Source of the DNA: a virus
Reading direction: 5' to 3' (one strand)
DNA: 64,000 nt
Virus record (IMG/VR): IMGVR_UViG_3300033074_002003
The notes under the pieces are model-generated. The model searched no databases and had not been told where the DNA came from. It saw only the letters and a program-made list of their open reading frames with translations. The position numbers and the translations under genes were made by a program. Within the stretch, counting starts at the first letter, position 1; each line of letters starts with the position of its first letter. Positions 25,907 to 49,745 of this stretch are shown piece by piece.

Positions 25907-26095
25907 TCAGTCGACGAGCGTCGACTCGTTCACCTGGATCGCGTCAACGCGGAGGGGATGAACGCCCGTACGCTGCATGTCTACAATCACGACACCCTCA
26001 ACGTTGCCGCGTATGACAACACCCAGATCGTATGCTTTTCTATCCGTGGGAGATTTCCACAGGATGAGCGCGCCCATCTTCACTTCTCTGTGCAT
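25907..26095 (-). CDS. small hypothetical protein (possibly degenerate array-family member)
   Basis: KMGALILW...YDLGVVIRG resembles array core; overlaps 26040..26285. Confidence 0.3.
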   Translation of the reverse strand: MHREVKMGALILWKSPTDRKAYDLGVVIRGNVEGVVIVDMQRTGVHPLRVDAIQVNESTLVD

Positions 26096-26285
26096 CAGAG
26101 ATAACTAGGCGAGCGCCCTGATAAAGCGAACGGAGCCGCGCTCCGTCACTCGGGTAGATCTTCTCGAGGTGTGTCAGTGCGTGATCAGAGTAGCACTTGT
26201 CACACACCTCGCGACCGCAGACAGAACAGTCCCACCGGTCGCTCTCGTAGATGAGTTCGCTTCGACAGTTTCCGCACTTGACCAT
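26040..26285 (-). CDS. Cys-rich zinc-finger-like small protein
   Basis: CGNC...CSVCGREVCDKC pattern. Confidence 0.35.
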   Translation of the reverse strand: MVKCGNCRSELIYESDRWDCSVCGREVCDKCYSDHALTHLEKIYPSDGARLRSLYQGARLVISDAQRSEDGRAHPVEISHG

Positions 26286-26288
26286 CGT

Positions 26289-26558
26289 TCACTCTCCTGG
26301 AGCAATAAGCCTACACAGCTCTGATTTGAAGTGTCGGACGCGCAGTGCGTCAGACGTTACGATCGACACCATCTCGATTAACTGCACGCCGCCCCGCGCC
26401 TGAACGTGAGCGGTGATTTTGATCGGATCAAAGTCGAACTCGCCATCCCAAAAGTCGTGCTCGGCCTCTTGTATGTAGACTTCCGAAATTACACCAACCC
26501 AGTTCCCGCCCGCCACCTCGACGAGGTCACCGACCCTGAAACTTCGTCTTGCGCCTAC
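26289..26558 (-). CDS. array-family small protein (KOW/SH3-like motif FRVGDLVEVAGGNWVGVISEV)
   Basis: GTG start overlapping upstream stop (GTGA); canonical N-terminal motif. Confidence 0.5.
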   Translation of the reverse strand, partial: VGARRSFRVGDLVEVAGGNWVGVISEVYIQEAEHDFWDGEFDFDPIKITAHVQARGGVQLIEMVSIVTSDALRVRHFKSELCRLIAPGE

Positions 26559-26965
26559 TTTGAGGGTTCGCCGACGGGCCATGTCGTGTACTTCTGTTCG
26601 TTGCGCTTCGGTTCTGCGGTGGGCGCAGAACGCGCACCAGTGGGAACTCGCGTCCCGTTCGGGGGCGGCGAAATCTTCTTCTTCATGGCGTCGGGTATGA
26701 GGTAAACGATGAGGTCTTTCAGGTGTTCACCGACAGACGACATCACATCAATCGCAATCTCGCGAGTATCACCCTCGGGCAGCGTATCGCTTCCTGTCTT
26801 CTTCTTTGCGACGTCAGAAGCGATACGCCACACGAAATTCTGCAAGAGCTTCATCGTGTCCTCACCGACGAACGGAAACTTGTTTCTCAGGACTGCGGTC
26901 GACGTCGTCTCTTCTTTGAGGATTGTCGAGACGATTTCGCGGAGGACACTCTCTTCGATGCGCAT
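26555..26965 (-). CDS. hypothetical protein (non-family, inside array block)
   Basis: 136 aa coherent translation MRIEESVLREIV. Confidence 0.45.
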   Translation of the reverse strand: MRIEESVLREIVSTILKEETTSTAVLRNKFPFVGEDTMKLLQNFVWRIASDVAKKKTGSDTLPEGDTREIAIDVMSSVGEHLKDLIVYLIPDAMKKKISPPPNGTRVPTGARSAPTAEPKRNEQKYTTWPVGEPSK

Positions 26966-26985
26966 GCACCTAAATATGCGTCACA

Positions 26986-27375
26986 TCACCAGGGCTTGCC
27001 GCATGTCGGGCAGTTGTTGCTCGCCGCGTTCGGGCCGCGACCCGCGCGAGAACCGTGCGCACCGCGAAGGCGAAGCTCGTAGTTCGCGCGGCTCACGATC
27101 GCCCTGCCGACATTTGCGACAGCGGGGTGGCGATCGTTCGAGAGCTGCGCGCCCACGCGCTCCATGTCAGCGTGCGTCAGCGTGTGATCGACGTCAGAGC
27201 GGACGCGTGTCGCCTCGTCGAGGACGGCGACGATCACCGTGAGCAGATCGCCCGAGGGCGCCGGCCGACCAGCGAGGTAGCGCCAGCAGATCGAGTGCCA
27301 GTGAGAGGGCCGCGTGCACACGTCAGTGACGAGCTGTGCGATGGTCTGTGAGCTTGGTTGATAATAATTCGCCAT
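26986..27375 (-). CDS. hypothetical protein with C-terminal CPTCGKPW (non-family)
   Basis: ATG MANYYQ 6 nt downstream of extended -10 TGGTATAAT (leaderless). Confidence 0.45.
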   Translation of the reverse strand: MANYYQPSSQTIAQLVTDVCTRPSHWHSICWRYLAGRPAPSGDLLTVIVAVLDEATRVRSDVDHTLTHADMERVGAQLSNDRHPAVANVGRAIVSRANYELRLRGAHGSRAGRGPNAASNNCPTCGKPW

Positions 27376-27381
27376 GCGCAG

Positions 27382-27390
27382 ATTATACCA
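27382..27390 (-). promoter_or_regulatory. extended -10 promoter TGGTATAAT driving leaderless 26986..27375
   Basis: minus-strand TGTGGTATAATctgcgcATG. Confidence 0.45.
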
Positions 27391-27406
27391 CAGGCAGAGA
27401 ATTTGT

Positions 27407-27595
27407 TCACTCAACAATGACACGCACGAGGTCATCTCGCAGGGCGATAAGCATTGTGGTGCGCGTCTTCGGACAGTACGCGTCACAGATAAGCCGGTCA
27501 GCTGTCTCGTGCTTGTCGCGCCAGGTGCGCAGGACGACGAATATGTTGCCCGTGACCGTGCCTCGAATGAGGCTACCTACCCGAGCGCTCTCCAT
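27407..27595 (-). CDS. array-family small protein (divergent; ends LVRVIVE)
   Basis: ARVGSLIRG motif; start ambiguous. Confidence 0.4.
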   Translation of the reverse strand: MESARVGSLIRGTVTGNIFVVLRTWRDKHETADRLICDAYCPKTRTTMLIALRDDLVRVIVE

Positions 27596-27839
27596 TTCGA
27601 GAACTAACTACCACTTCAGCGAAGGCGCTCCCACTCAGGACAAAAATCTCGCGCCTGAAGTTGGAAAACAGGCCACTCACCCCGGGTGCCAGCCCGTACG
27701 ACATATTTCCGATCCAGAATACTCGGACGGGATCGCTGTCCGTAACGACGCCGAGCTCGGAATCGTCATCTGGCATCGAGAGGTGCGCGCTCGCGTCCGA
27801 GAGCACGAGGTCTCCCACACGAACGTGTCGAGGCGTCAT
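27573..27839 (-). CDS. array-family small protein
   Basis: MTPRHVRVGDLVL; ATGA overlap with upstream stop. Confidence 0.55.
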   Translation of the reverse strand: MTPRHVRVGDLVLSDASAHLSMPDDDSELGVVTDSDPVRVFWIGNMSYGLAPGVSGLFSNFRREIFVLSGSAFAEVVVSSRNGERSGR

Positions 27840-28051
27840 CGAGTTATCTTCCACCACTTTGCGACCCCCTCGCTCGAAGCTAGAGACGAATACATGACAC
27901 CGCCCATCGCGCACATCGAATCTATCCAGACAATCTCAAATTCGGCCTTCTCAACGCCCTCGACATCGCTGCGTACGAGCTTCACGACGACGCCCAGCTC
28001 GTTGTCAAACCCATCGAGGATGAGGTCACCGACCCGTAGGGTGTCGTTCAC
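27836..28051 (-). CDS. array-family small protein
   Basis: MNDTLRVGDLILDGFDNELGVVV. Confidence 0.55.
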   Translation of the reverse strand: MNDTLRVGDLILDGFDNELGVVVKLVRSDVEGVEKAEFEIVWIDSMCAMGGVMYSSLASSEGVAKWWKITR

Positions 28052-28065
28052 CCGCGGATCATACG

Positions 28066-28260
28066 CTACTCGTCGCGATTGTTACTGCCCCTCATCGCGG
28101 CGACCGAGACAGACGCCCTGATGTCCGCCTCATCGCTCTCACTTTCGCACACGTGATTGACAGTGGGACCCATCACCCACACGAGCGATCGAGTGCCAGG
28201 TGATGGGACGGGTACCCAACCAGCTCGTGTGGGATCGAATTCGGCAGCGGCTGATTTCAT
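28066..28260 (-). CDS. small hypothetical protein (non-family insert)
   Basis: MKSAAAEFDP..; ATGA coupling to upstream family gene. Confidence 0.35.
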   Translation of the reverse strand: MKSAAAEFDPTRAGWVPVPSPGTRSLVWVMGPTVNHVCESESDEADIRASVSVAAMRGSNNRDE

Positions 28261-28454
28261 CTCGCGATCACCATATCTCTTCTGAAAACCACCATTGTGC
28301 ACAGGGAGTTTCCACAAACAAACGTGGCATCAAACTCCTCTTCAAGTGGATCGTAGTCAACCACAACACCGACATTGAATTCGCCGGTTGGCATATCGCG
28401 AGTCAAAATCAGGTCACCGATCCTGAAGCGCGGGACCAAGTTGGCGTGTGTCAT
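28257..28454 (-). CDS. array-family small protein
   Basis: FRIGDLILTRD...MVIAR; ATGA coupling. Confidence 0.55.
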   Translation of the reverse strand: MTHANLVPRFRIGDLILTRDMPTGEFNVGVVVDYDPLEEEFDATFVCGNSLCTMVVFRRDMVIAR

Positions 28455-28651
28455 CGCGCGATGATCCGATCCGATCCGATGATGGGCATGGACATCAACT
28501 TCCCACGCTCGACAAGGAACATACCGAGAGAATGCCGTCCCCAAATGTTGTCACGGTACGCGACACCGATTGTCTGCGAAGAGTCACCCGTCAGCACGAG
28601 GTCGCCGACACGCACTGTGTCGTCACCACGACAAATCTCGCGAACGATCAT
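28451..28651 (-). CDS. array-family small protein
   Basis: VRVGDLVLTGD...RIIAR; ATGA coupling. Confidence 0.6.
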   Translation of the reverse strand: MIVREICRGDDTVRVGDLVLTGDSSQTIGVAYRDNIWGRHSLGMFLVERGKLMSMPIIGSDRIIAR

Positions 28652-28863
28652 TTCGCGATCACCCGATCCGATTGAATGAGCGATAGTGCAGTGAACCCAT
28701 GAAAGTCCACGAACAGTGCCCTCGGCGTCGTTATTACTATTCGTAGAGCGTCAGCTCTGGGATTGGTGGCGTAGACAACGTGAGCGGTGACAACACCCAG
28801 CGATCCATCGCGGGTGGTCACAAGGTCTCCCACGCGAATCTCATCGTAGGTGTGCGCGCTCAT
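28648..28863 (-). CDS. array-family small protein
   Basis: IRVGDLVTTRDGSLGVV...RVIAK; ATGA coupling. Confidence 0.6.
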   Translation of the reverse strand: MSAHTYDEIRVGDLVTTRDGSLGVVTAHVVYATNPRADALRIVITTPRALFVDFHGFTALSLIQSDRVIAK

Positions 28864-29048
28864 CTCGCGATCGCCGTGTCAGTGTGAATGATCGCAATCC
28901 TCACGAGCTTGCCCTCAAATACTACGTGAGCGGCGAACGAGGGATAGTTGTACTCGTACGAATTCGTAATGACGCCGACGTATCCCGGGTAGGTCATAAT
29001 CAGATCTCCCACCTTGGGTGGACGCAACTCTGGATGCGTGCGTCTCAT
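28860..29048 (-). CDS. array-family small protein
   Basis: PKVGDLIMTYPGYVGVI...TAIAR; ATGA coupling. Confidence 0.55.
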   Translation of the reverse strand: MRRTHPELRPPKVGDLIMTYPGYVGVITNSYEYNYPSFAAHVVFEGKLVRIAIIHTDTAIAR

Positions 29049-29401
29049 CCCACCACCCTGTCCTCGTACGAGAGCGCGAGCATTGCGAGCCCGCTCACGC
29101 CTTGCACGACACAGAGAGCTCTGGGCCAGCTGTGTTCCCACCCGAGCTCGAGGTCGATCCGCTCTAGCACGACACCGACCAAACTGCCCATGCGATACTC
29201 GCCCGCGACGAGGTCACCGAAACGCACGTGATGGTACTGCTTGGTGCCCGCGGCCATACCCACACTGTAGCTCACGCGGGCGGCTCCTACACGTGCAACC
29301 CTCGGTGACCCGCAGGACCCTCCGGTGTGTGGGAAGTGGTACCACCCATCCCTGTCGGTAAGGGTCCCACGTGGGTCACCCGGGGGACACGGGACGGTCA
29401 C
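29045..29401 (-). CDS. array-family small protein (N-terminally extended)
   Basis: VRFGDLVAGEY...DRVVG; ATGA coupling. Confidence 0.5.
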   Translation of the reverse strand: MTVPCPPGDPRGTLTDRDGWYHFPHTGGSCGSPRVARVGAARVSYSVGMAAGTKQYHHVRFGDLVAGEYRMGSLVGVVLERIDLELGWEHSWPRALCVVQGVSGLAMLALSYEDRVVG

Positions 29402-29676
29402 CGGACCACCCGTGCACGGTGCAGGTCCAAGTCAGCCGTCTCGCCTGCGTGAGTGTCTTCCCACAGTTCTGCCGAGCGAGTCTCGATGTCGATGACGTTT
29501 TTCACGTGTTCGTACGTGGTGATACCCGTCACTACGAAAATCTCGACGTCGTAGTCTTCGTGGAGGAGGATAAGGTCTCCCACGAAGAGTCGCAGGTCTG
29601 ACAGTTTGACGTAAGCGTCGCACTCTTCAACGTCGCACTCTTCAAAGACACTGGCAGTATCGCGTTCCTTGATCAT
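29398..29676 (-). CDS. array-family small protein
   Basis: LRLFVGDLILLHEDYDVEIFVV...ARVVR. Confidence 0.55.
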   Translation of the reverse strand: MIKERDTASVFEECDVEECDAYVKLSDLRLFVGDLILLHEDYDVEIFVVTGITTYEHVKNVIDIETRSAELWEDTHAGETADLDLHRARVVR

Positions 29677-29894
29677 CGCGCTAGCACCTGCGATCTGTTT
29701 ATGACGTACTCGGGCGACTCGGCCGGGTAGTGACGATACATTGCGACCGCGTTGCTGCAAAAAAACGTGTCGACATCGATAGTGCCGCGAACGAACCCTT
29801 CCTCAATGCCGGTGATGACGATCAACCCATCTGATGCTAACAGCAGGTCTCCCACGAACAACCGAAGCTCTGATAGCGACAGCGTTTTAGTCAT
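29673..29894 (-). CDS. array-family small protein
   Basis: LRLFVGDLLLASDGLIVI...SQVLAR (near-duplicate N-term of neighbour). Confidence 0.55.
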   Translation of the reverse strand: MTKTLSLSELRLFVGDLLLASDGLIVITGIEEGFVRGTIDVDTFFCSNAVAMYRHYPAESPEYVINRSQVLAR

Positions 29895-30133
29895 CTCGCG
29901 AGCACCCTGAATTTCCCGGCAAACCAGTGATGTTTTTCCGCACCATGTGGTGTAGAGCCACAAGTAATCGGATCGAACACCCAAACGTTCACGCCGTAAT
30001 CGTGGTGAGGTACGACTGCGTGAATCACTCCGATCCTTCGCCCGTTGCGCTCAATGATAAGATCTCCCACGCAGAACTTGATGTCCAACATGCCGAGGTG
30101 ACCCGGAGTGGGTGTGGGATATTCCTTCGCCAT
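29891..30133 (-). CDS. array-family small protein
   Basis: FCVGDLIIERNGRRIGVI...FRVLAR. Confidence 0.55.
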   Translation of the reverse strand: MAKEYPTPTPGHLGMLDIKFCVGDLIIERNGRRIGVIHAVVPHHDYGVNVWVFDPITCGSTPHGAEKHHWFAGKFRVLAR

Positions 30134-30134
30134 T

Positions 30135-30344
30135 TCACCTCGCTAGCACTGTGAGTTCGCCAGCGAAAGCTCGATCGACGTTGATGCCGTTGCCGAACTT
30201 CTCGACGATCGCGGCTTGGTAGTGCGGTCCTACCCATCCCGTGACGACAGCAACTCTTCTTCTTGGCTGCACGATCTGCCCGTCGCTCGTATAGAAGCAC
30301 TCGCCGAAGAGCACGAGGTCGCCCACGCGAAATATCGAGCTCAT
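30135..30344 (-). CDS. array-family small protein
   Basis: MSSIFRVGDLVLFGE...LTVLAR. Confidence 0.6.
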   Translation of the reverse strand: MSSIFRVGDLVLFGECFYTSDGQIVQPRRRVAVVTGWVGPHYQAAIVEKFGNGINVDRAFAGELTVLAR

Positions 30345-30532
30345 CTCGCGATCACCGAAGCGCCCCAGATTATGACCTGCGGGTAGAGCGTCGCACTTGC
30401 ACGCTTGACTCCCGTGCCGTAGAATTGATCTGTGCTGTCGTACGCAATGAGGGTGATGACGTATATGCCCACCCGGTCAGCGACGAGGTCACCGAAGCGC
30501 CCTCTCGGGAATGTCAGAAGCGGATGGCTCAT
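30341..30532 (-). CDS. array-family small protein
   Basis: GRFGDLVADRVGIYVI...ASVIAR; ATGA coupling. Confidence 0.6.
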   Translation of the reverse strand: MSHPLLTFPRGRFGDLVADRVGIYVITLIAYDSTDQFYGTGVKRASATLYPQVIIWGASVIAR

Positions 30533-30756
30533 CGCGCAATCACCCTGGCACTCCGCACTGTGATATCTGCAAGGAAGATCTCCTTCGCACAGCCTGTAAC
30601 GTGAAAGTAGAACACCCTGTGCGAGTCGTCCATCATGTGAATCATGTGAGGGGCGTCGTGGTTGATGTGTGTGATGACGTAAACACCGCGCAACGTCGTG
30701 ATGAGATCACCCACCCGGGCATCTGGAAACCTGAGCGTGTGTACTGACAGGTTCAT
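30529..30756 (-). CDS. array-family small protein
   Basis: ARVGDLITTLRGVYVI...ARVIAR; ATGA coupling. Confidence 0.6.
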   Translation of the reverse strand: MNLSVHTLRFPDARVGDLITTLRGVYVITHINHDAPHMIHMMDDSHRVFYFHVTGCAKEIFLADITVRSARVIAR

Positions 30757-30989
30757 TTGCTGTCACTCGCGAGCGTCACTTCGGTGACGAGTCCCGTTCT
30801 CACCGTGCGCCTCCCACGGCCGTCAATATACCAATTTGCTTGCGCATTTTCCGTGCCGTCTGTCACAAGACCAAACTGATTCCAGCGATCTCTACCTGTG
30901 ACGACGAGCACGTCTTTGTTAGTGATGAGAAGATCACCCACACGCACGTATGGGTTCGTGTACGGAAAGTTCGATGCGAGAAATTTCAC
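30753..30989 (-). CDS. array-family small protein (ends ASDSK)
   Basis: YVRVGDLLITNKDVLVV; GTGA coupling. Confidence 0.5.
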   Translation of the reverse strand: MKFLASNFPYTNPYVRVGDLLITNKDVLVVTGRDRWNQFGLVTDGTENAQANWYIDGRGRRTVRTGLVTEVTLASDSK

Positions 30990-31228
30990 CCTTTTGCCCA
31001 CTTGCAGTACTCGCTGTGAGCGTGCTTCTGTTCGGGAGAACCCACGATGTACAGGTCAACTGCCCCGCGGAGCATAGTCTCCGCGTTGCCGCGGATCGAT
31101 ACGCGGTAGATCTCTAGAAGTTCTCCGCGGGCATCCAACTTGCGACACCGACCGATGACGACGCCCACCCACTTCCCGCGCTGGCCCGTGACGAGGTCAC
31201 CGACGCGAAATAATTTCAGGTGATCCAC
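30986..31228 (-). CDS. array-family small protein (C-terminus divergent)
   Basis: MDHLKLFRVGDLVTGQRGKWVGVVIG. Confidence 0.5.
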   Translation of the reverse strand: MDHLKLFRVGDLVTGQRGKWVGVVIGRCRKLDARGELLEIYRVSIRGNAETMLRGAVDLYIVGSPEQKHAHSEYCKWAKG

Positions 31229-32295
31229 TTGATCCCCTCGGTGAAGGCGACGTGCTCTGCCTCTTCGTTCGGGTTCGTCGTGTACCGACAGTCCCTCCCG
31301 AGTCTTTTCTCGCGTTCATCTTCGATAATGCTGTAGCATGTCCCGGTCCCGTAGCCATTTATCTTCTTCGTGTCGCGCCTGATCTCCTCGATCGTCTCGA
31401 TGTCGACAGGATCACACGCGACCTCTGTATCGTACGCGGGCGAGGTGATGAAGTAGACGTTGCGTATGCGGCGGGGTACTTCGCCGCCATGGCGGAAGCG
31501 TTCGACGTAGAACCAATCGATGCGATCTGCCCACGACAGTTTGTCCCACTCTGTGTGGTGGCGATTGTTGATTTCGGCTCGGGCTTTCCATTCGGCGTGG
31601 TAGTGCTCGCAGCCCGCAGTGGGCCAGAAATCTGGACGTATTGGAGTTCCGAGGAACGCGTACACTTTCTTTCCTGGTTTCGTTGGGATCGTACACGCAC
31701 CCAGGAAGATGTCCGTTGCACCGTTTCGCCTCGCGTATACGCGCCCGACGACGAGCGACGAGGGCGTGATCGCTGGGCGCGATTTGCTGCCCCCGCGTGT
31801 CCCATCGATCAGGTCGCGCTGCTTCTCCATTTCACTGTGCTGTTCGCCGCCCACGAGCACGAGCCTCACGGCGGAGCCAAGGATCCCCCAGACGAACTGC
31901 CCCACGATTTGGCCTCCCGCGAGGACACCGCGGTGTCGCAGCGCCTCGAGGAGCTGGTCCTCGCGGAGGTCGAAGAGTCGCTTCTTCTCGTCGATGACGC
32001 GGTACGCTCGTCCGCCCTCGTTCCGCACTTCGAGGTCGATGATCCGCAGCGTCGTTGGGTCGTTCTTCTCGCGTGTGACCTCGACGTCAGGCGTGGGCGT
32101 ACCCGTGAGCGACCACCTGTACCCGTTTGCCCAGCGTTCCGCAGTCGCGGGCGCTGTTTTCGAGTCGGGATTGTACGCGAACGTAGGGACGACCTCTACG
32201 ACCTCTCCTGTGAGAAGTATCCTCTTCTCTGCCTTGCGAGAGACGTAGCACACCTCGTTGAGCAACCTCATAGCACCCGTCGTCTTGCTCTTCAT
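31216..32295 (-). CDS. hypothetical 359-aa protein embedded in array (non-family)
   Basis: ATG MKSKTT overlaps upstream family stop (ATGA); coherent translation; antisense ORF is Arg/Pro junk. Confidence 0.5.
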   Translation of the reverse strand: MKSKTTGAMRLLNEVCYVSRKAEKRILLTGEVVEVVPTFAYNPDSKTAPATAERWANGYRWSLTGTPTPDVEVTREKNDPTTLRIIDLEVRNEGGRAYRVIDEKKRLFDLREDQLLEALRHRGVLAGGQIVGQFVWGILGSAVRLVLVGGEQHSEMEKQRDLIDGTRGGSKSRPAITPSSLVVGRVYARRNGATDIFLGACTIPTKPGKKVYAFLGTPIRPDFWPTAGCEHYHAEWKARAEINNRHHTEWDKLSWADRIDWFYVERFRHGGEVPRRIRNVYFITSPAYDTEVACDPVDIETIEEIRRDTKKINGYGTGTCYSIIEDEREKRLGRDCRYTTNPNEEAEHVAFTEGIKWIT

Positions 32296-32483
32296 GTTCT
32301 CTCTCCCTCGAGCTCGCTCTCCCACACGTAACTCATCGTCCCGTCACACCACATGATGTGATGATCGACAGCGTGCAGATGTGTATCACCAAAGCTTTTT
32401 ACGATGACACCAGTGACGTTATCTTTCTCGCGACCCTCAATTAACCGCGAGTGAAGCACCAGATCGCCGACGTGTCTGATCAC
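32292..32483 (-). CDS. array-family small protein (GTG start)
   Basis: VIRHVGDLVLHSRLIEG; GTGA coupling. Confidence 0.45.
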   Translation of the reverse strand: MIRHVGDLVLHSRLIEGREKDNVTGVIVKSFGDTHLHAVDHHIMWCDGTMSYVWESELEGERT

Positions 32484-33072: not shown

Positions 33073-33075
33073 GTG

Positions 33076-33982: not shown

Positions 33983-34118
33983 GTGGTGTATGTCGCGCGA
34001 ACTTTTGTCTGCTGAATGCACGGTGAACAAGAATAGCCCGGGAAGGGGAGGCGCGAACGAGACGAGCCTCTCTGTCCACGAGTACGTCCCACCCGTGCGC
34101 CACAGGTAGCGATTGAGA

Positions 34119-34541: not shown

Positions 34542-34543
34542 AG

Positions 34544-38212: not shown

Positions 38213-38216
38213 CGGA

Positions 38217-38895: not shown

Positions 38896-39107
38896 CTGAT
38901 CACCAAGTCTGGCCGCGCAAGCGCCTCTGCCCAGGTTGTCGTCTCCCACTCAACGTGTCTGTCGTTCCACCGATAGAATCCCGTTGTCATCACGACGGGC
39001 ACTTCATTTTCTTTTCCCTCGTCGCGTTCTGTGATCACGTAAATGTAGCGGAATGAGACGAGAAGGTCGCCGACGCGAAACTTACCAATAGTACCAGCAG
39101 TGCTCAC
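38892..39107 (-). CDS. array-family small protein (GTG start)
   Basis: FRVGDLLVSFRYIYVI...DLVIR. Confidence 0.5.
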   Translation of the reverse strand: MSTAGTIGKFRVGDLLVSFRYIYVITERDEGKENEVPVVMTTGFYRWNDRHVEWETTTWAEALARPDLVIR

Positions 39108-39292
39108 GAGATCACCTTCCAATCCTCCGAACGGTGCGCGGGCAATCTGATTCCCAACCAGCGACAATTATTGCTAACGTAGTTGAATCCCACCACAGAA
39201 CAGTAGGCATCGAAGGGCTCGTGTTCAACAACGACGTAGGTCGAAAGCCTGGTCACGACGAGGTCTCCGATCTGGAGTGTCATCGAGTTCAT
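39104..39292 (-). CDS. array-family small protein
   Basis: LQIGDLVVTRLSTYVVV...WKVIS. Confidence 0.6.
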   Translation of the reverse strand: MNSMTLQIGDLVVTRLSTYVVVEHEPFDAYCSVVGFNYVSNNCRWLGIRLPAHRSEDWKVIS

Positions 39293-39483
39293 CTCACCCT
39301 CTTCACGCCCGCGCGGGGAAAATCCAGCGAGGAAACCCAGTCTTCGCGCGGTACTCTAGTCCATCCCGGTGTTGTCCTGATCGCGGGCCAAATGCCATCA
39401 ACGTCGCGACCAACGATCACATAGAGGTCAAACCTGAATATGATCAGGTCTCCGACTCGCAGGCGTCGCTCCGCTTCACTCAT
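39289..39483 (-). CDS. array-family small protein
   Basis: LRVGDLIIFRFDLYVIVG...VKRVR. Confidence 0.6.
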   Translation of the reverse strand: MSEAERRLRVGDLIIFRFDLYVIVGRDVDGIWPAIRTTPGWTRVPREDWVSSLDFPRAGVKRVR

Positions 39484-39671
39484 CTTACCACCCGCGCGCT
39501 CGCATCACGGATGTCGAAGGCGCCCACGTCGAGGCCCACCCACTCGCACGAACCGCTCCTGCGATAGTAAAATCCCTTCGCTGTCCATATTCCCTTCTTC
39601 TCGCTGACGATCACGTAGAGAACGAGCGGAGTCACCACGAGGTCACCGATCCTGTAGCTGAAGCCGTTCAC
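39480..39671 (-). CDS. array-family small protein
   Basis: YRIGDLVVTPLVLYVIV...ARVVR. Confidence 0.6.
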   Translation of the reverse strand: MNGFSYRIGDLVVTPLVLYVIVSEKKGIWTAKGFYYRRSGSCEWVGLDVGAFDIRDASARVVR

Positions 39672-39871
39672 GAGATCGCCCTTCTTGCATCTGTCGCCCG
39701 CGCGCCGAGCCGAGTGCGGACCCAGTCCCAGCTCCCTCTCCAGTAGAATGACCCGACCACCGTGCAGAAGTCGTCACCGGGTCTGTGCTCGATTACAACG
39801 TAGGTTCCAGACTTCGATATGAGCAGGTCGCCGAATTTCACTTCGCGACCTGTGGACAAAATCTCGCTCAC
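39668..39871 (-). CDS. array-family small protein (GTG start)
   Basis: VKFGDLLISKSGTYVVI...RRAIS. Confidence 0.5.
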   Translation of the reverse strand: MSEILSTGREVKFGDLLISKSGTYVVIEHRPGDDFCTVVGSFYWRGSWDWVRTRLGARATDARRAIS

Positions 39872-40077
39872 CTGAACACTTTCCTTTCGCGCCGCGGCGC
39901 AGTGTGGTACCCATTGATCCACTCCCACCCGCTGCGAGTTGTGTAAAGCCCGATCGCCGTTCCGCAATCCGCGCGATAGTCTTCGCACCACTCACAGAAA
40001 ATCGCCGTCTCGTATTTAGAGACGATCAGGTCTCCGACGCGGAACGTAAATCCGGGTGACAATTTCTCTGCGCTCAT
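39868..40077 (-). CDS. array-family small protein (KLSP N-term)
   Basis: MSAEKLSPGFTFRVGDLIVSKYETAIF...RKVFR. Confidence 0.55.
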   Translation of the reverse strand: MSAEKLSPGFTFRVGDLIVSKYETAIFCEWCEDYRADCGTAIGLYTTRSGWEWINGYHTAPRRERKVFR

Positions 40078-40286
40078 CGGATCACCCGATCTGTTCTCAG
40101 CTGCTCCCTCGCGACATCGAGCATCCTGAATATCCAACTTCCGTACCTCGTCGAATACGCGAATCCTACTCCGCGTAAGCACCACGGATTTTCCTCTGAC
40201 TTTCCCACGATCACCCACGTTCCGACGTGGGTGATGAGGAGGTCACCCACCCTGAACCGCGCGGGGGACAAATTCTCATCGCTCAC
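40074..40286 (-). CDS. array-family small protein (ENLSP N-term; GTG start)
   Basis: VSDENLSPARFRVGDLLITHVGTWVIVG...DRVIR. Confidence 0.5.
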   Translation of the reverse strand: MSDENLSPARFRVGDLLITHVGTWVIVGKSEENPWCLRGVGFAYSTRYGSWIFRMLDVAREQLRTDRVIR

Positions 40287-40519
40287 GAGATCACTCTCGT
40301 CTCCGGACCCAGCCACCGCCAGACGGATATCACATCGTGGTTGTTCCACAACGATCTCCCCGTGCTCACGTTCCAGAAGAGCCCGGTCCCAAACCATTTA
40401 TTCTCGAGATCGGGTGTGGCGTCAGGATTAGCCAAGCGACCCACGATCACGTAAAGGAAAGAACTGTAGCTTGAACTGTAGACGATGAGGTCGCCCACTC
40501 GAAGTTCGACAGCGCTCAT
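40283..40519 (-). CDS. array-family small protein
   Basis: MSAVELRVGDLIVYSSSYSSFLYVIVG...TRVIS. Confidence 0.55.
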   Translation of the reverse strand: MSAVELRVGDLIVYSSSYSSFLYVIVGRLANPDATPDLENKWFGTGLFWNVSTGRSLWNNHDVISVWRWLGPETRVIS

Positions 40520-40746
40520 CTCACCACCCGTTCCCTCACGTACGTCGACGTGTGTACTCGAGTGCTCTCCCAGCACACGTCCTTAGCATTCCAGAAATAG
40601 AATCCCGTCGCGTCCCAGTACGATCGCGAAGTATCGGAGCTCCGACCCACGATCACATGGATACAGTATTTTCGCACGAGCAGGTCGCCGATTTTGAAGT
40701 TGTATGCATCCTCGTGGAGGATGGCGGGTGACAAATTCTCTCTCAT
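40516..40746 (-). CDS. array-family small protein (ENLSP N-term)
   Basis: MRENLSPAILHEDAYNFKIGDLLVRKY...ERVVR. Confidence 0.55.
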   Translation of the reverse strand: MRENLSPAILHEDAYNFKIGDLLVRKYCIHVIVGRSSDTSRSYWDATGFYFWNAKDVCWESTRVHTSTYVRERVVR

Positions 40747-40937
40747 CTGTAAATCTCGTGGTTCCACCCCGCCCACGTGTGAGCTGATGGCGCCCACACC
40801 GTGGGAGACGAAATTACAGGCGAACAGTAGACGAACCCAGAACACTCTGGCCACTCGTTCTCTCTTAACCCCACGATCACGTAGACGTAATCACGAGAGA
40901 CAAGGAGATCGCCGAGGCGAACGATCGGTTCGCTCAC
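40743..40937 (-). CDS. array-family small protein
   Basis: IVRLGDLLVSRDYVYVIVG...HEIYR. Confidence 0.6.
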   Translation of the reverse strand: MSEPIVRLGDLLVSRDYVYVIVGLRENEWPECSGFVYCSPVISSPTVWAPSAHTWAGWNHEIYR

Positions 40938-41134
40938 CTCACGACCCTCCCGCTAGCGTACTCACGGTACCATCCCGGAAAGTCCGAGAACCACCACCAC
41001 ACGTCGTTAGCCCAGTAGAACCCACTCATGTAGACATTCCCTTCGTGGGGCTCTTTGCTGTGCGGTCCGATCACGACCGCGGTCTCCTCGCCCATCACCA
41101 CGAGGTCCCCGACGCGGAATCTGCTCTCGCTCAC
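40934..41134 (-). CDS. array-family small protein (Trp-rich C-term GFYWANDVWWW; GTG start)
   Basis: FRVGDLVVMGEETAVVIG...GRVVR. Confidence 0.5.
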   Translation of the reverse strand: MSESRFRVGDLVVMGEETAVVIGPHSKEPHEGNVYMSGFYWANDVWWWFSDFPGWYREYASGRVVR

Positions 41135-41334
41135 GAGATCACCTCGTGGTCCCACGATGAGTGAACAACATTGTTTTCAAGCAGCGCACACCCGCCGCCC
41201 TTCACATAGACGATCCCAAATCCAACCGGCCACTCTCCCTCCTGTTTCACGATCACGTAGACATAGCTCTCCGAGATCGCGAGGTCTCCCAACCTGAGGC
41301 GACCGCGAGCCGCGCCCGAATCGGTGTCTCTCAC
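41131..41334 (-). CDS. array-family small protein (GTG start)
   Basis: LRLGDLAISESYVYVIV...HEVIS. Confidence 0.5.
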   Translation of the reverse strand: MRDTDSGAARGRLRLGDLAISESYVYVIVKQEGEWPVGFGIVYVKGGGCALLENNVVHSSWDHEVIS

Positions 41335-41543
41335 GAGATCACCCTCACGATCGCCGGACTGCTGGAGTGAATGCTCTTGTCGACCATCGACCGCGCGCTG
41401 CTCGGGTACCAGAAGCTGAACCCGCGAACGCGGCGTCGCGATTCGTCCGACCACGCGACGACAACATACAACCCGTACTCGCTGATGACTAGGTCACCGA
41501 TCCGGAGGCCGAACCGCCGGGGTGACAAATTCTCATCGCTCAT
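41331..41543 (-). CDS. array-family small protein (ENLSP N-term)
   Basis: MSDENLSPRRFGLRIGDLVISEYGLYVVV...VRVIS. Confidence 0.6.
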   Translation of the reverse strand: MSDENLSPRRFGLRIGDLVISEYGLYVVVAWSDESRRRVRGFSFWYPSSARSMVDKSIHSSSPAIVRVIS

Positions 41544-41740
41544 CGCACGACCCTTCCGCTAGCGATCTCTAGGTCCCACACCGAGTGGCTCGCGTACCAC
41601 CACCACTCGCCGTTAGCCCAGTAGAACCCGCTTATCGAGACACACTCTGCCTCCAGTTCTTCGCCCGAGATTCTGGTCACAACTGCGATCTCGTCGTGCA
41701 GGGCCACGAGGTCGCCCAGGCGGAACCTATTCTCGTTCAC
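41540..41740 (-). CDS. array-family small protein (Trp-rich C-term GFYWANGEWWW, near-duplicate of 40934..41134; GTG start)
   Basis: FRLGDLVALHDEIAVV...GRVVR. Confidence 0.5.
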   Translation of the reverse strand: MNENRFRLGDLVALHDEIAVVTRISGEELEAECVSISGFYWANGEWWWYASHSVWDLEIASGRVVR

Positions 41741-41961
41741 CGGATCACCCGCCTGTCCGTATACTGCAGGTCGTATGTCATCCAGTCGATGTTCACCCAC
41801 GCGCGCTCGCCCCTCAGATAATAGAGCCCGGCCGCCGGCCACACCCTCCGTACTCTGTGGCCGGTGATCACGTAGAGGTAGCGGTTCGTCACGATGAGGT
41901 CTCCCATCCTGTAGCTGAAATCGTCCGCGCAATGTGCGGGTGACAAATTCTCATCGCTCAC
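41737..41961 (-). CDS. array-family small protein (ENLSP N-term)
   Basis: MSDENLSPAHCADDFSYRMGDLIVTNRYLYVI...RRVIR. Confidence 0.6.
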   Translation of the reverse strand: MSDENLSPAHCADDFSYRMGDLIVTNRYLYVITGHRVRRVWPAAGLYYLRGERAWVNIDWMTYDLQYTDRRVIR

Positions 41962-42173
41962 GAGATCACCCTCACGATCGCCGAACTCCCTGGGTGGATG
42001 GCGTGTGTGGTCACCCGCTTCGCTCTGCTGGGTATCACGCCGTTACCGAAGAAGATCCCCAACCCAATAGCGTGTTCGTTCTCTTCCCCGAAAATCACGA
42101 CGTACGACCCGCGTCTCGTGATCACGAGATCACCGACACAGAGGCGACGAGCGGGTGACAAATTCTCTCTCAT
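41958..42173 (-). CDS. array-family small protein (ENLSP N-term)
   Basis: MRENLSPARRLCVGDLVITRRGSYVVI...VRVIS. Confidence 0.6.
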   Translation of the reverse strand: MRENLSPARRLCVGDLVITRRGSYVVIFGEENEHAIGLGIFFGNGVIPSRAKRVTTHAIHPGSSAIVRVIS

Positions 42174-42367
42174 CTCACGATCCTATGGTTCCAGTCGGCG
42201 CGCACCCAACTAACGGTCAGCCAGACAGGAAGCCCGCCCTCTTCTCCCCAGACGAACCCGCAGCATATGGCATGGGTGCTCTCGCCCCACACATCTCCCA
42301 CAACAACGTAGAGGTAACCCATCGAGACGATCAGGTCGCCCACACATATATGACGCTTCTCGCTCAC
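42170..42367 (-). CDS. array-family small protein (GTG start verified as GTGA overlap)
   Basis: VSEKRHICVGDLIVSMGYLYVVVG...HRIVR. Confidence 0.5.
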   Translation of the reverse strand: MSEKRHICVGDLIVSMGYLYVVVGDVWGESTHAICCGFVWGEEGGLPVWLTVSWVRADWNHRIVR

Positions 42368-42600
42368 GAGATCACCCGATCTTCGGGATACAGGTTCTTC
42401 TGGTCGAGCACCGCCCGGGCGAACTCCCAGCGACCCGTGTGGAGGACCCACATGAATCCCATCGCACCGTTGCACGTGAGATTCCACTCGGAGTATCCTA
42501 GGAACACCCACGTCCCGCGCACTGTGACGATCAGGTCGCCGACCCGCAGCGTAGAATTCCGCACTGGGACTCTGCACAATTCGGCCGTCCCGTCACTCAC
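42364..42600 (-). CDS. array-family small protein (GTG start)
   Basis: LRVGDLIVTVRGTWVFLG...DRVIS. Confidence 0.5.
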   Translation of the reverse strand: MSDGTAELCRVPVRNSTLRVGDLIVTVRGTWVFLGYSEWNLTCNGAMGFMWVLHTGRWEFARAVLDQKNLYPEDRVIS

Positions 42601-42863
42601 GCCCACCGGAATACCCTGCTTCCCCGACACGCATCAAGCCCGAGAATGTGAAATGACGTCCACTTCCAACACCCGTACCAGAGGTAGAACCCGCGCCCGA
42701 GTCCCGTATCGGTCACAACCAGGATCTCACACTCGTTGACGAGGAGGTCGCCGACACGGACACCGGTCTCGCCCGCGAGAATTGTCCCACGTGCACCGAA
42801 TAATTCGGCCTCCGCGCTCTCGTGAGGGGGTTGGGGATACTTGTCCATGGCTTGCAGACTCAC
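42597..42863 (-). CDS. array-family small protein, first gene downstream of the regulatory gap (ends RVFRWA)
   Basis: VRVGDLLVNECEILVV; GTG or internal ATG start. Confidence 0.45.
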   Translation of the reverse strand: MSLQAMDKYPQPPHESAEAELFGARGTILAGETGVRVGDLLVNECEILVVTDTGLGRGFYLWYGCWKWTSFHILGLDACRGSRVFRWA

Positions 42864-42870
42864 GAGAGTG

Positions 42871-42925
42871 GAATTGGGTGAGGGAATTTGAGCGAGGGTG
42901 ACGGGAGGGGGAATTGAGGGTGGGT
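42871..42925 (-). repeat. three tandem about 14-bp G-rich direct repeats (GGGAATT(T)GAG...GG) immediately upstream of 42597..42863
   Basis: ggaattgggtgagg / ggaatttgagcgagg / ggaattgagggtggg. Confidence 0.45.
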
Positions 42926-43032
42926 CGCATTTGCCACTCTATCACACACTGCAAGGAGTTGCACAGTCCCCTCTGTGCGAGAGAAACATCAGCGCTCCTG
43001 ATTCTGCACCCAAGAAAACTCACGGTGGCCTC

Positions 43033-43060
43033 CGAAAAATACCCGATCTCGGGTTTTTCG
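43033..43060. terminator. bidirectional intrinsic terminator-like hairpin (AAAAAT-ACCCGATCTCGGGT-TTTTT)
   Basis: GC stem CCCGA/TCGGG flanked by A-run and T-run; lies in 640-bp non-coding gap downstream of 43505..43702. Confidence 0.45.
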
Positions 43061-43242
43061 ACACACAGTGGGCCCTCTTTCGTACTCGCAGTCGTGTTTT
43101 TCGGTGCCCAACTCCACTCAGTCGATGTTGACCGCAGATTGTCGCTTGAGTGTGCGCAGTCGATCTCGATTCGACAGAGAAATCTCGGTGGGCGAGGCGC
43201 AACGGGTCGACCCGTTCACTTCCGATTGTCGTGAGTCTGCGC

Positions 43243-43431
43243 CTCAGTTGGGTCTCCCCGAGCAGGGGGGTAGCACCGGTGTCGAGACATGTGTTCTGTC
43301 CCTGCACATCACGAGTGGGAGTGGGCCCGCGGAGAGGGCGGGACGACCCGAGATTTTGCGCCTCGAGGCCCGTGAAATCTGCGGTGTGCACGCCTGCGCT
43401 CACCTTGGGTCTCCCCGAGCAGGGGTAGAAC
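43243..43431. repeat. two copies of a roughly 24-bp direct repeat TTGGGTCTCCCCGAGCAGGGG(G)TAG about 165 bp apart (each contains hairpin CCCC-GAGCA-GGGG)
   Basis: copies at about 43243-43266 and 43408-43431 in non-coding gap. Confidence 0.5.
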
Positions 43432-43504
43432 GCGGGTCGTCGGGAAGCGGGACGCGCCTCAGGAAGTCGAAAGCCACGAGGGTTGTCGATGCGATGGGGA
43501 CGCG

Positions 43505-43702
43505 TCATTGGGCGATCACCTCGAGCATTGTCGTGTGTACCACCAGCAGTCCTTCCAACCGCGGGTCTGAATCGTATACTTTGACGAGGCGGTGCGTGCG
43601 GCCGTCGAAGTGGAACAGGTGATTGTCGATCACGACAGCGAGTGTATGACTGCTCCACGTGAGATCGCACAGGTCACCGATCCTGAACTCGCGAGCGATC
43701 AT
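43505..43702 (-). CDS. array-family small protein (ends LEVIAQ)
   Basis: MIAREFRIGDLCDLTWSSHTLAVVI. Confidence 0.5.
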   Translation of the reverse strand: MIAREFRIGDLCDLTWSSHTLAVVIDNHLFHFDGRTHRLVKVYDSDPRLEGLLVVHTTMLEVIAQ

Positions 43703-43911
43703 CGTCCCACCAGAACCCTAATAAGGAGACCTGACGTGCAGTTGTCAAAGTATGCGGCGTGAGGTCCGGCCCAAAATGCTGTAACAACCGCGCGACTCGA
43801 GAAAAAGTCATCTTTGCTGTGGTGGACGACGACTCCAACCTCGCGCGTAGGTTCGAAATAGATGAGGTCACCGATGTGGCACTCACCAGCTCGGATTCGC
43901 GGGTGACTCAT
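43699..43911 (-). CDS. array-family small protein
   Basis: MSHPRIRAGECHIGDLIYFEPTREVGVVV...; ATGA coupling both sides. Confidence 0.5.
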   Translation of the reverse strand: MSHPRIRAGECHIGDLIYFEPTREVGVVVHHSKDDFFSSRAVVTAFWAGPHAAYFDNCTSGLLIRVLVGR

Positions 43912-44102
43912 CTTCCGCGCAGCTCCACGGGGAGCGTCCACAATCCCGCACCGCGCCTGTCGAACAGGATGCTGTCGAGGTTAACCCAAACACACTCACT
44001 CCGCATGCTGTCTTTTCGAATGACGATACCGAGCATGCTAAAGTACGTGAAGAGGTCTCCCACTCGGAGTTCGTGGATACTCATCGATGTGGGTGCCATC
44101 AC
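43908..44102 (-). CDS. array-family small protein
   Basis: LRVGDLFTYFSMLGIVI. Confidence 0.5.
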   Translation of the reverse strand: MMAPTSMSIHELRVGDLFTYFSMLGIVIRKDSMRSECVWVNLDSILFDRRGAGLWTLPVELRGR

Positions 44103-44323
44103 CTGATCACCCGCGTGATCTCGTCGCTGTAGATCAGTTGTCGGTTGTTCACGTAGTCACCCATCACGAAGTAGCACCCGATCGCTTCGACGGAGTCATA
44201 TGCTGCTGTCACAACAGCGAGCCCGTGGCGCGGCGTCCTCGCGCTCGCCGGCGACTGGGCAGTGATGAAGGTGACGCTAGGGACTGTGCGCGTGAGGATG
44301 AGGTCTCCCACGCGAGGCTTCAC
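44099..44323 (-). CDS. array-family small protein (GTG start)
   Basis: VKPRVGDLILTRTVPSV...TRVIR; GTGA overlap. Confidence 0.5.
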   Translation of the reverse strand: MKPRVGDLILTRTVPSVTFITAQSPASARTPRHGLAVVTAAYDSVEAIGCYFVMGDYVNNRQLIYSDEITRVIR

Positions 44324-44532
44324 GCGATCCTCGCCATCTCGTCGTGTTCGAAGCACAGGTCGGTCTCCCAGCGATGTCGCGGGTGTATCCAGAGAACCGC
44401 ACGGCTCCCGTCACCTTTGAATTCTGATTTGGGTGCGAGGACGATGCCGAGAGCACTGCTGAACACAGCAATGTGCTCCTCGACGATGACGAGATCTCCT
44501 ACTCTCACGTCTTCGGGACGACTGTACCTCAT
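44320..44532 (-). CDS. array-family small protein (ends MARIA)
   Basis: VRVGDLVIVEEHIAVFSSALGIVL. Confidence 0.55.
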   Translation of the reverse strand: MRYSRPEDVRVGDLVIVEEHIAVFSSALGIVLAPKSEFKGDGSRAVLWIHPRHRWETDLCFEHDEMARIA

Positions 44533-44538
44533 GGTCCC

Positions 44539-44868
44539 TCACATGAAGAGGTGAACAACCCACAGACACGCGAGGGTGAAGGCACACCAGCCCAGCCGCC
44601 ATGCCCATTCCAACCCCCAGTCGGCCGCTTGTGCATCCCGCAGTGAGGTTGAGAGGGGCACCATGCGGGTGAGTAGGGCTAGGCCTAGGATGTGGGCGGG
44701 CCTCAGGAAGGGGGCCCCGAGGGGGACGATGAACCACTTCCACAGGACCGTGCACGTCCACCCGTAGGCGAGGCCCTCGAGGGCGAGGGCCATCAGGAAA
44801 ATGGGGACGGCGCGGGCGACAGAACCCTGCCCCGCGCCGTCACTCGGTGTCTCTTCCCCTTCGCTCAT
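44539..44868 (-). CDS. small membrane protein (2-3 TM) embedded in array
   Basis: MSEGEETPSDG then hydrophobic helices; ATGA overlap with upstream gene stop. Confidence 0.4.
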   Translation of the reverse strand: MSEGEETPSDGAGQGSVARAVPIFLMALALEGLAYGWTCTVLWKWFIVPLGAPFLRPAHILGLALLTRMVPLSTSLRDAQAADWGLEWAWRLGWCAFTLACLWVVHLFM

Positions 44869-45167
44869 TCCTCGCGCTCCACCCACCTCGCGGTGTACAC
44901 TGCGTCCTCGAAGATGCACCGGGCTCTGATCACCTGGCCCGATCGCTCGTACGCGTACGCTCCGAGGAGACGGACGTCGTGCCCGGCGTGCAGGGGTCGC
45001 AGGACGGCGTCTCCGCCGATGATCCGGACGACGACGTAGGGCGTCTCTACGTTGAGGATGGGTGCCTCGAAGATGCGACCCTCCTCGTAGACGTCATCGC
45101 ACAGGAGGAGAAGGTCGCCCACCGCGGGCTGCGACTCACTCCGGGGGTGCGGCGCCACGGCGTCCAC
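44865..45167 (-). CDS. array-family protein, first member (GTG start; AVGDLLLLCDDVYEEG; divergent C-term)
   Basis: family motif; upstream AAGGGAAAGGG purine tract; start uncertain. Confidence 0.4.
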   Translation of the reverse strand: MDAVAPHPRSESQPAVGDLLLLCDDVYEEGRIFEAPILNVETPYVVVRIIGGDAVLRPLHAGHDVRLLGAYAYERSGQVIRARCIFEDAVYTARWVEREE

Positions 45168-45444
45168 CCTTTCCCTTCTTGGGAGCGGACTTCGCGTCCT
45201 CGCGAAGGGACGCTTCGAACGCCTTCCCTTTCTTCGCGGCGACCTCTTCGAGCTTGATGCGCGCGCGCTGTCGGGCGGCGCCCACGCCCGCACCGAGCCT
45301 CGAGTCGAGCACCGCGAGCTGCTCCTTGGGAGACAGCTGTGCCCACGCCTCGTTCCTCGCGATCGCCTCCGCGCGCTTCTCTGCGCCGCCCACCGGGTTG
45401 TGGCGTCGCCCTCCGATGCCCGGGTACTTGCGAACTCTCGCCAT
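45136..45444 (-). CDS. hypothetical basic protein
   Basis: strong SD GGAGG 8 nt upstream of ATG MARVRKYPG; Lys/Arg-rich C-term. Confidence 0.5.
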   Translation of the reverse strand: MARVRKYPGIGGRRHNPVGGAEKRAEAIARNEAWAQLSPKEQLAVLDSRLGAGVGAARQRARIKLEEVAAKKGKAFEASLREDAKSAPKKGKGGRRGAAPPE

Positions 45445-45618
45445 ATCTTCGTCCTCCCCACCCAGTGGGTGGTTCACGGGTTGTCACGTCCTCAGGTGGA
45501 CGCGGTGCTCCACGCGGGTTATGAGCCCGCGTTTGTCCTCGGGAGGGGACTTCACACATGTGTGGAGCTGCCCACCCTTTCCGGGTGGGGATTCTCTTGC
45601 TGTCCCGGAGGGGGACGA

Positions 45619-49738: not shown

Positions 49739-49745
49739 CTAATTT

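Follow-up and report, generated by a model that had tools for sequence, protein, structure and literature searches.

The window analyzed here, a 64,000-nucleotide stretch of DNA from the IMG/VR virus record IMGVR_UViG_3300033074_002003, looks like the non-structural region of a large uncultured phage. Its minus strand carries a long head-to-tail array of 63 small paralogous genes. We consider it an even bet that this array is a lineage-specific expansion (an “accordion”-type family) of a previously undescribed SH3-like barrel protein, the products of which form a repertoire of small binders or inhibitors. Expansion of a viral gene family is a known kind of event. What is new here is this protein family, its coupled layout, its dual-coded junctions, and its cassette turnover.

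Family membership is specific to one strand and one region. A strict pattern, [RK..][VIL..]GD[LFI]h (h, hydrophobic), has 57 matches on the minus strand, all at 26.5–44.5 kb, one match on the plus strand, and none in the rest of the 64 kb. A looser pattern yields the 63 members counted here (minus strand, 26.3–45.1 kb), a set that leaves out two further open reading frames (ORFs) with variant motifs, RVGNL at 32480–32695 and RVGSL at 27407–27595. With a hidden Markov model (HMM) trained on the members, 58 stop-to-stop ORFs score at E<1e-3, every one of them minus-strand and within 27.5–44.5 kb. Members are 62–198 amino acids (aa) long, with a median of 73 (60–80 aa in 46 of 63), and the distance from motif to stop is near-constant, mostly 50–64 aa. 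An earlier, sequence-only reading had proposed ~65 consecutive minus-strand ORFs of 60–170 aa, from 25907 to 45461. The family itself stands, as does the proposed N-terminal h-R-V-G-D-L-[VI] with its hydrophobic strand, which the patterns and the 63-member alignment show as h-R-V-G-D-L-h-h and a V-rich second strand. The run of members, however, is interrupted by a 369-aa ORF, a membrane protein, an 83-aa ORF (28066–28317), several ORFs below 27.5 kb, and a 640-nt non-coding island. Neither proposed end holds: there is no member within 25907–26285, and the upstream ORF at 44865–45461 (198 aa) is over-extended, being member-like only in its last ~90 aa. The better ORF upstream of that part, 45136–45477, lies in another frame.

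The array genes are, judging by codon usage and substitution patterns, real coding genes on the minus strand that are under purifying selection. Every available synonymous codon is used for the motif residues R, G, D, L, and V (five Arg, three Gly, and both Asp codons). GC content at the first, second, and third codon positions of members is 0.58, 0.45, and 0.70 (GC3>GC1>GC2). The ratio of nonsynonymous to synonymous polymorphism (pN/pS) against the near-identical strain L001 is 0.34 overall and 0.15–0.36 in the cassettes that differ. The corresponding substitution ratio (dN/dS) is 0.13–0.57 across 13 orthologue pairs with the diverged lineage L005. The JGI and ENA gene callers independently predict the same ORFs. 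A rival view holds that the array consists of chance frames in GC-rich DNA, or that the true genes are on the plus strand, where long overlapping ORFs are indeed present (e.g., 31252–32331 and 42155–42739). We give this view almost no credence. The motif is confined to one strand and region and varies synonymously, dN/dS is well below 1, the codon positions are ordered as above, one member has a confident fold prediction, and the HMM matches nothing on the plus strand. Codon variation, dN/dS, and the strand-specific HMM rule out both the frame artifact and opposite-strand coding, which the sequence-only reading had named as outcomes that would overturn it.

Only the core of the predicted barrel is conserved, with loops, surface residues, and net charge free to vary. 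Conservation in the 63-member alignment is limited to h-R-V-G-D-L-h-h, a Gly four residues on, h-x-V-h-h-G, G-F-Y, one invariant Trp, and a terminal R-V-h-R. Entropy exceeds 3.3 bits in every other alignment column, and the isoelectric points (pI) of members span 4.4–11.2. AlphaFold2, run on the family alignment, models member 40077–40283 with a pLDDT of 82 and a pTM of 0.63. The model is a five-strand meander with a short helical turn before the last strand, which is the arrangement of an SH3-like small beta-barrel. Members are predicted to fold in this way, as barrels of ~65–75 residues. The family resembles known SH3-like barrels (KOW, Tudor, CarD/Mfd, Sm, and chromo-like Sso7d) in this predicted meander, in the helix before beta5, and in a G-D at the start of beta1 followed by alternating hydrophobics. 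It differs from them in having no sequence-level membership, no conserved ligand surface, and variable charge.

The family is new to curated libraries. Neither the members nor their consensus matched any model in Pfam, PHROGs, or NCBIfam, Foldseek searches against the PDB and the viral models of BFVD gave nothing significant, and we found no published description of the family in the literature. This bears out the suggestion that it is not a described system. The label “KOW/SH3-like”, given from the sequence alone, survives as a predicted SH3-like fold but not as KOW membership, because the KOW model PF00467 matched none of 51 members, nor the consensus, even at E≤1 or E≤10. The KOW-like pattern comprises an invariant G-D-L-h-h, a Gly at +8 in 24 of 62, and V-h-h-G at +11 to +14. 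Its spacing is similar, but not identical, to that of KOW, and the pattern G-D-L...G...V-h-h-G is common to many SH3-like barrels.

These results bear on two further explanations. The members could be KOW- or Tudor-like regulators, whose barrels would bind RNA polymerase, the ribosome, or nucleic acid and so reprogram host transcription or translation, on the model of the NusG/Spt5 KOW, the RNA-polymerase-interacting domain of CarD or Mfd, or the C-terminal Tudor of UvrD. We regard this as unlikely. No sequence match to CarD_TRCF was found when members and consensus were compared with Pfam, and the uniform RNA- or ribosome-binding role first suggested does not fit the wide spread of pI and the conservation of core positions only. 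Alternatively, the family could be a dead NlpC/P60 or LRAT-like relic that would bind peptidoglycan or lipid, its R-x-G-D-L-V...h-V-G-I-h-h-G hairpin being homologous to the catalytic-His strands. A PDB-sequence profile search did give one borderline match, to the GDLV...HVGIYIG hairpin of the NlpC/P60 peptidase MepS (E=0.003), and hhalign aligned the family to NlpC/P60 with 64% probability, over 26 columns only. The relic is nevertheless very improbable. The match is a single beta-hairpin, the 63-member alignment has no conserved Cys or His column that could supply the NlpC/P60 catalytic triad, Pfam NlpC_P60 and LRAT are unmatched by members or consensus, and the predicted topology is a closed barrel.

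Successive genes overlap at their ends. As originally proposed, almost every junction is a start–stop overlap: 49 of the 62 junctions between successive members are −4 overlaps (ATGA or GTGA), and two are −1 overlaps. Aligned on the downstream start codon, junctions give the logo GGGTG(A/G)T(C/G)nG-ATGA. The last-strand codons (R-V-I/V-x-R) are biased to spell GGGTGATC or GGGTGGTG ~7–10 nt before the next start. GGTGATC pairs base for base with GAUCACC at the 3′ terminus of 16S rRNA. Its placement in the R-V-I-S and R-V-I-R classes gives an equivalent GGAGG-to-start spacing of ~7 nt. The predicted duplex energy with the anti-Shine-Dalgarno (anti-SD) sequence is −10.5 kcal/mol at 55 junctions versus −5.0 at 630 internal control positions. 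The third base of codon −4 is G in 36 of 49 cases, regardless of the amino acid (R, V, A, L, E, or K). Arg at this codon is AGG or CGG in 16 of 17 cases (32% elsewhere), Val at −3 is GTG in 18 of 22 (43% elsewhere), and Ile at −2 is ATC in all 16. Because these choices keep nucleotides rather than residues, the conserved C-terminus is partly an RNA signal, with GGGTGATC serving as the Shine-Dalgarno (SD) sequence of the next gene. The independent lineage L005 has the same design (41 junctions, G at −9 in 32 of 41, −9.9 versus −5.6 kcal/mol).

The C-terminus is thus not the near-invariant protein feature that had been described. The exact ending R-V-[IV]-[AS]-R occurs in one member only, 44 of 63 endings fall into four related classes (h-h-R, 21; h-h-A-[RK], 11; [VA]-I-S, 8; [RK]-h-A, 4), and the bias among synonymous codons marks the SD signal. 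One set of bases thus carries the last beta-strand, the predicted SD signal for the following gene, and the stop/start overlap. Stop–start overlaps together with a ribosome-binding-site-like sequence inside the upstream gene are what a coupled operon has. The layout (overlaps, SD energies, and codon bias) fits the earlier proposal of coupled polycistrons, and from it we infer the functional coupling itself: each gene would carry its successor's ribosome-binding site, and each block would be translated as a coupled polycistron. At junctions throughout 28–44.5 kb, GATC also occurs within the last 18 nt of 24 of the 49 coupled genes, against 5.5 expected. This excess is probably a by-product of GGTGATC, and it would also put methylation sites at nearly every gene boundary.

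The window paralogues are old. Their mean identity is 24%, with a maximum of 51.5% and a weak but significant decay with array distance, in agreement with the large, divergent family first proposed. We found no long DNA repeats in the array; the longest is 129 nt at 74% identity, with mismatches in all bases. A diversity-generating retroelement (DGR) was considered and is excluded because the mismatches are not adenine-specific; there are no DGR-type repeats, no template/variable repeat pair, and no reverse transcriptase among the ORFs scanned, which were part of the window's ORFs. The array is therefore not “diversity-generating” in the mechanistic sense once suggested, and its orthologues are under purifying selection. 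The top two paralogue pairs, in the minus-strand stretch 40934–42173, are each exactly three genes apart (41958/41331, 44.6%; 41540/40934, 51.5%), which suggests an old three-gene segmental duplication at 40.9–42.2 kb.

Array content differs between related phages. Embedded non-family genes are 87–92% identical between lineages (dS, 0.12–0.56); family orthologues of the window and L005 have 58–86% aa identity (dS, 0.37–1.5). Whole stretches are without counterpart between the two lineages, namely 37.9–42.6 kb of the window (~23 members) and 4.2–7.2 kb of L005 (~14 members). Before the island there are ~17 members in L005 versus 5 in the window, and after it 12 versus 23. Among near-identical strains, most members are identical (pS=0), while single cassettes or short runs differ by pS of 0.13–0.33, giving a mosaic of divergence. 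In one swap, at 41331–41543, one breakpoint coincides with the start-codon junction and the other with GGGTGATC, close to the stop. Clustering at 50% identity divides even a small sample of 351 sequences into at least 91 groups. The picture, as read from these comparisons, is one of birth-and-death evolution and cassette exchange by recombination, with purifying selection on each copy, rather than hypermutation or pervasive positive selection. Clustered paralogues in one viral genome, with copy number and content varying among relatives, are the mark of an accordion family.

This variation also bears on the idea that members are stoichiometric subunits, that is, paralogues that build one hetero-oligomer, such as an Sm-like ring or filament, a scaffold, a decoration, or part of a compartment, with equal dosage enforced by coupling. 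Large differences in copy number and content between related phages, and the swapping of single members between strains, are difficult to reconcile with a fixed assembly, and no Sm motif was found. We consider such an assembly distinctly unlikely.

The family seems to be restricted to one phage clade. Among 5.8 billion proteins searched by word index there were six relatives; a profile run exhaustively against 1.84 billion cluster representatives gave 38 at E<1e-3, all of 56–109 aa and with the same signature. At least four related lineages were recovered from JGI, ENA, and Logan metagenome assemblies, one ENA record being labeled “aquatic metagenome”. The retrieved loci of each lineage have members in similar head-to-tail arrays. 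L005 has 47–48 members in 17.7 kb, with partial orthology to the window, and member P0003 is recorded on a 329-kb contig. The 369-aa gene and an 18-mer from the island had no true match in IMG/VR. The same 18-mer picked out 16 loci in a metagenome scan; just two of them, L020 and L023, are real relatives. Megablast of the array DNA against 50,697 deposited phage records gave no match, and tblastn of flanking proteins against cultured phages found distant relatives only, at <50% identity.

Our reading of the family as a repertoire of small binders or inhibitors draws on several features taken together: a single stable scaffold whose surfaces and charges are free to vary, the lack of a shared ligand site, cassette exchange at the strain level, and restriction to a phage clade. 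That the binders or inhibitors are directed against variable host or competitor factors (defense systems, toxins, or host machinery) has, in our estimate, somewhat less than an even chance. Under this mechanism, each gene would supply its successor's ribosome-binding site, giving block-wise coupled translation. The products would be small, stable binders or inhibitors, each aimed at a different host or competitor factor, and their diversity would be kept up by recombination between phages, without a dedicated mutagenic mechanism. An anti-defense or host-takeover role is plausible. A bolder version, which we rate as less likely than not, is a phage-borne “binder library”: one SH3-like scaffold with at least 60 specificities per genome, and >90 across a few related phages, whose cassettes are exchanged at dual-purpose junctions as a shuffled inhibitor repertoire against host defense or toxins.

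Several observations weigh against the binder repertoire. Taken over whole genes, dN/dS stays below 1 and gives no hint of pervasive positive selection. We found no homologue of known function, no guilt-by-association with known anti-defense genes, and no domain fusions among the 38 relatives. Tight coupling suggests roughly equimolar output, which fits the subunits of a complex better than independent inhibitors. A second AlphaFold2 model, of member 28651–28863, has a pLDDT of 62.6 and is confident through the first three strands, with a disordered C-terminal half, so the common fold is confidently modeled for one subfamily only. The anti-SD sequence used for the duplex energies may not be that of the host. 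Finally, the phage origin of the window is drawn from context: tRNAs, a tmRNA, GroEL, an RNA ligase, PHROG hits, and a T7-endonuclease-I gene, the last found immediately upstream of the array in the related lineage L006.

An immunity or antitoxin repertoire, in which each barrel would neutralize a different toxin (polymorphic, bacteriocin, toxin–antitoxin, abortive-infection, or competing-phage), overlaps strongly with the binder repertoire, and sequence alone cannot separate the two. Tandem, small, divergent, fast-turnover paralogues with conserved cores are a hallmark of immunity-gene arrays, and we count this in its favor; purifying selection on each gene combined with turnover also fits. 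However, library scans of window ORFs show no toxin or toxin-delivery genes, and no known Pfam immunity family is matched. We hold the immunity repertoire to be distinctly improbable.

Table 1. Coordinates of array features and neighboring genes in the window, with related lineages.
Feature	Position or loci	Strand	Description
GroEL-type chaperonin	24254–25906	+	PHROG 5725, E=1e-141; convergent with the array at its downstream end
Small Cys-rich protein	26040–26285	−	Zn-ribbon-like look (CGNC...CSVC...CDKC); directly downstream of the array
Marginal last member	26289–26582	−	97 aa, RVGDLVEVAGGNWVGVI; misses E<1e-3 in the stop-to-stop ORF scan; called protein 2.2e-05 in the --max HMM run
Two outlying members	27573–28051	−	27836–28051 and 27573–27839; motif, HMM
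Dense core	28257–44532	−	59 members; motif and HMM matches, junction statistics; interrupted only by the 369-aa gene, the variant ORF 32480–32695, and the island
Lower block	28257–31228	−	13 members, mostly V-[IL]-A-R endings; syntenic with L005, 57–86% aa identity
369-aa gene	31216–32325	−	Unrelated, conserved, function unknown; PHROG 12487/2475; 88% aa identity to L005 orthologue
Main block	32292–42863	−	41 members
Main block sub-region	32.7–36.6 kb		Members with 40–110-aa N-terminal extensions
Main block sub-region	37.9–42.6 kb		Fastest turnover; h-h-R and V-I-S endings, some with MSDENLSPA leader
Example junction	40283–40298	−	AGAGTGATCTCGTGA; final codons R-V-I-S hold the GTGATC SD-like core; TGA stop overlaps GTG start of next gene (40286)
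Replaced member	41331–41543	−	Unrelated family member instead in L001, L002, and L004; replacement 93% identical to P0029
Non-coding island	42864–43504	−	640 nt; splits the array, which has at least two member blocks
Island counterparts	L005:7246–7838; L020:250–842; L023:1–456
Upstream block	43505–44532	−	5 members (44320, 44099, 43908, 43699, 43505), ATGA/GTGA-coupled; ends at the island
Membrane protein, predicted	44539–44919	−	Unrelated, 126 aa; separates the possible first member from the rest of the array; 90% aa identity to L005
Possible first divergent member	44865–45140	−	AVGDLLLL..., ~90 aa, start uncertain; HMM domain E=1.9e-4
MoxR-like AAA ATPase, then DUF2201 metallopeptidase-like/VWA protein	50463–53121	+	ATPase, PHROG 1297
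Lineage	L001–L004		The window's own, 97–99% nt identity
Lineage	L005–L007
Lineage	L020 and L023
Lineage	L008–L010

The island is more conserved than the genes around it. Four lineages share it at 87–90% nt identity, and the divergence of its coding neighbors is far greater. Within it lie a 157-nt tandem duplication (present as a single copy in L023), a C-rich leader of ~180 nt, and a terminator-like hairpin followed by a T-run (43054–43041). Indels of 1 nt and 157 nt between lineages indicate that it is non-coding and led us to reject a protein-coding island. A structured RNA was also rejected, with no Rfam match at E≤1 and essentially no covariation in RNAalifold. Promoter and terminator scans gave counts no different from those of shuffled sequence. 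As far as its position and contents indicate, one operon probably ends in the island, which would also hold the regulatory region of the following one.

Other genes and sequence elements are embedded in the array. The start of the 369-aa gene overlaps the stop of member 32292–32522, and the antisense plus-strand ORF at 31252–32331 (359 aa) mirrors this gene almost end to end. The antisense ORF is probably a GC-rich artifact, because gene calling in L005 picks the minus-strand gene, which is also coupled to its neighbors. The 369-aa protein and a 231-aa upstream protein have no relatives in the PDB, and the membrane protein has no match in Pfam. About 10 members at 32692–36638 (minus strand) have N-terminal extensions of 40–110 residues that match nothing in Pfam. 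An HMM run rejected the idea that these extensions are second barrel copies, and the long members match nothing in Pfam, PHROGs, or NCBIfam. The same sub-block shows the highest between-strain divergence (pS of 0.13–0.28 for 33686–35343). Six members at 39868–42173 (minus strand) share the leader M-[SR]-[DE]-E-N-L-S-P-A, conserved at the DNA level as ATGAGCGATGAGAATTTG. It lengthens junction homology to ~30 nt, and could be a recombination substrate or a translation enhancer.

The surroundings of the array include several identifiable genes. Besides GroEL, the window codes for a KaiC/RecA-like ATPase, a MoxR-like ATPase and its VWA/DUF2201 partner, an RNA ligase, and products of several PHROG families whose function is unknown. 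Next to GroEL we noticed no GroES gene. One family member had a very weak NCBIfam match to GroES (E=0.067), which we regard as chance. The MoxR-like ATPase matches records annotated as “N4 gp24-like protein”, and the pair is in part like a phage N4 gene. There are six tRNA genes and one tmRNA, at 48831–50362 and 59096–62089 (Tyr, Phe, Met, and Arg-CCT, and further on Met and Arg-TCT). The tmRNA is complete, with the tag ANDNGTSLALAA. We take this tag to be nearer to proteobacterial than to actinobacterial tags, a weak hint at the host; an actinophage origin has no support here.

The array can be compared with several known systems. In a set of 224 jumbo phages, a Zn-ribbon expansion of ~35 copies in Bacillus phage G was termed “unprecedented” (Iyer et al. 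2021, PMC7824862). In both cases a very small single-domain protein has been amplified to dozens of copies in one large phage, with a proposed regulatory or conflict role. The array differs in its SH3-like barrel, about twice the copies, a contiguous coupled layout, dual-coded junctions, and documented turnover. Lineage-specific expansions and accordion-like families are known in large viruses (PMC13359090). The accordions of poxviruses and giant viruses (Elde et al. 2012; reviewed in PMC13359090) are likewise tandem families that vary between close relatives and are read as adaptations to host defenses. Their copies are recent and near-identical, whereas the array holds ancient paralogues without long repeats and under purifying selection.

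Bacterial gene arrays offer further parallels. The orphan immunity arrays of polymorphic toxin systems (Zhang et al. 2012, PMC3482391) also consist of tandem, small, divergent paralogues with cassette-like recombinational turnover. Here, in contrast, the genes are phage-borne, have no adjacent toxin, belong to an unrelated family, and overlap instead of being separated by intergenic spacers. Chromosomal integrons share with the array a long, one-directional run of small, mostly unknown genes that are swapped as cassettes. They differ in that the array has one protein family throughout, no attC-type inverted repeats, and no integrase that we could see. An integron cassette array was rejected as an identity for the array: there are no attC sites, the 4-nt gene overlaps leave no room for them, and the repeat families found are the coding motifs themselves.

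The array is of interest at several levels. A structural beta-strand that overlaps the ribosome-binding site of the next gene would be a clean natural example of dual coding, and it cautions that conserved C-terminal “protein motifs” of overlapping genes may be RNA signals. The array also offers a test case of a multigene family that is compact yet diverse, with no long repeats, with purifying selection, and with renewal by whole-gene replacement. If the member count holds for the whole genome, this would be the largest single-family phage expansion that we found reported, the benchmark being ~35 copies (PMC7824862). If the products inhibit host systems, the array would be a catalogue of more than 60 small and probably very stable proteins to screen against defense systems, and a scaffold for binder engineering. 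Should the “binder library” prove true, it would be a viral counterpart of the multigene repertoires of eukaryotic parasites.

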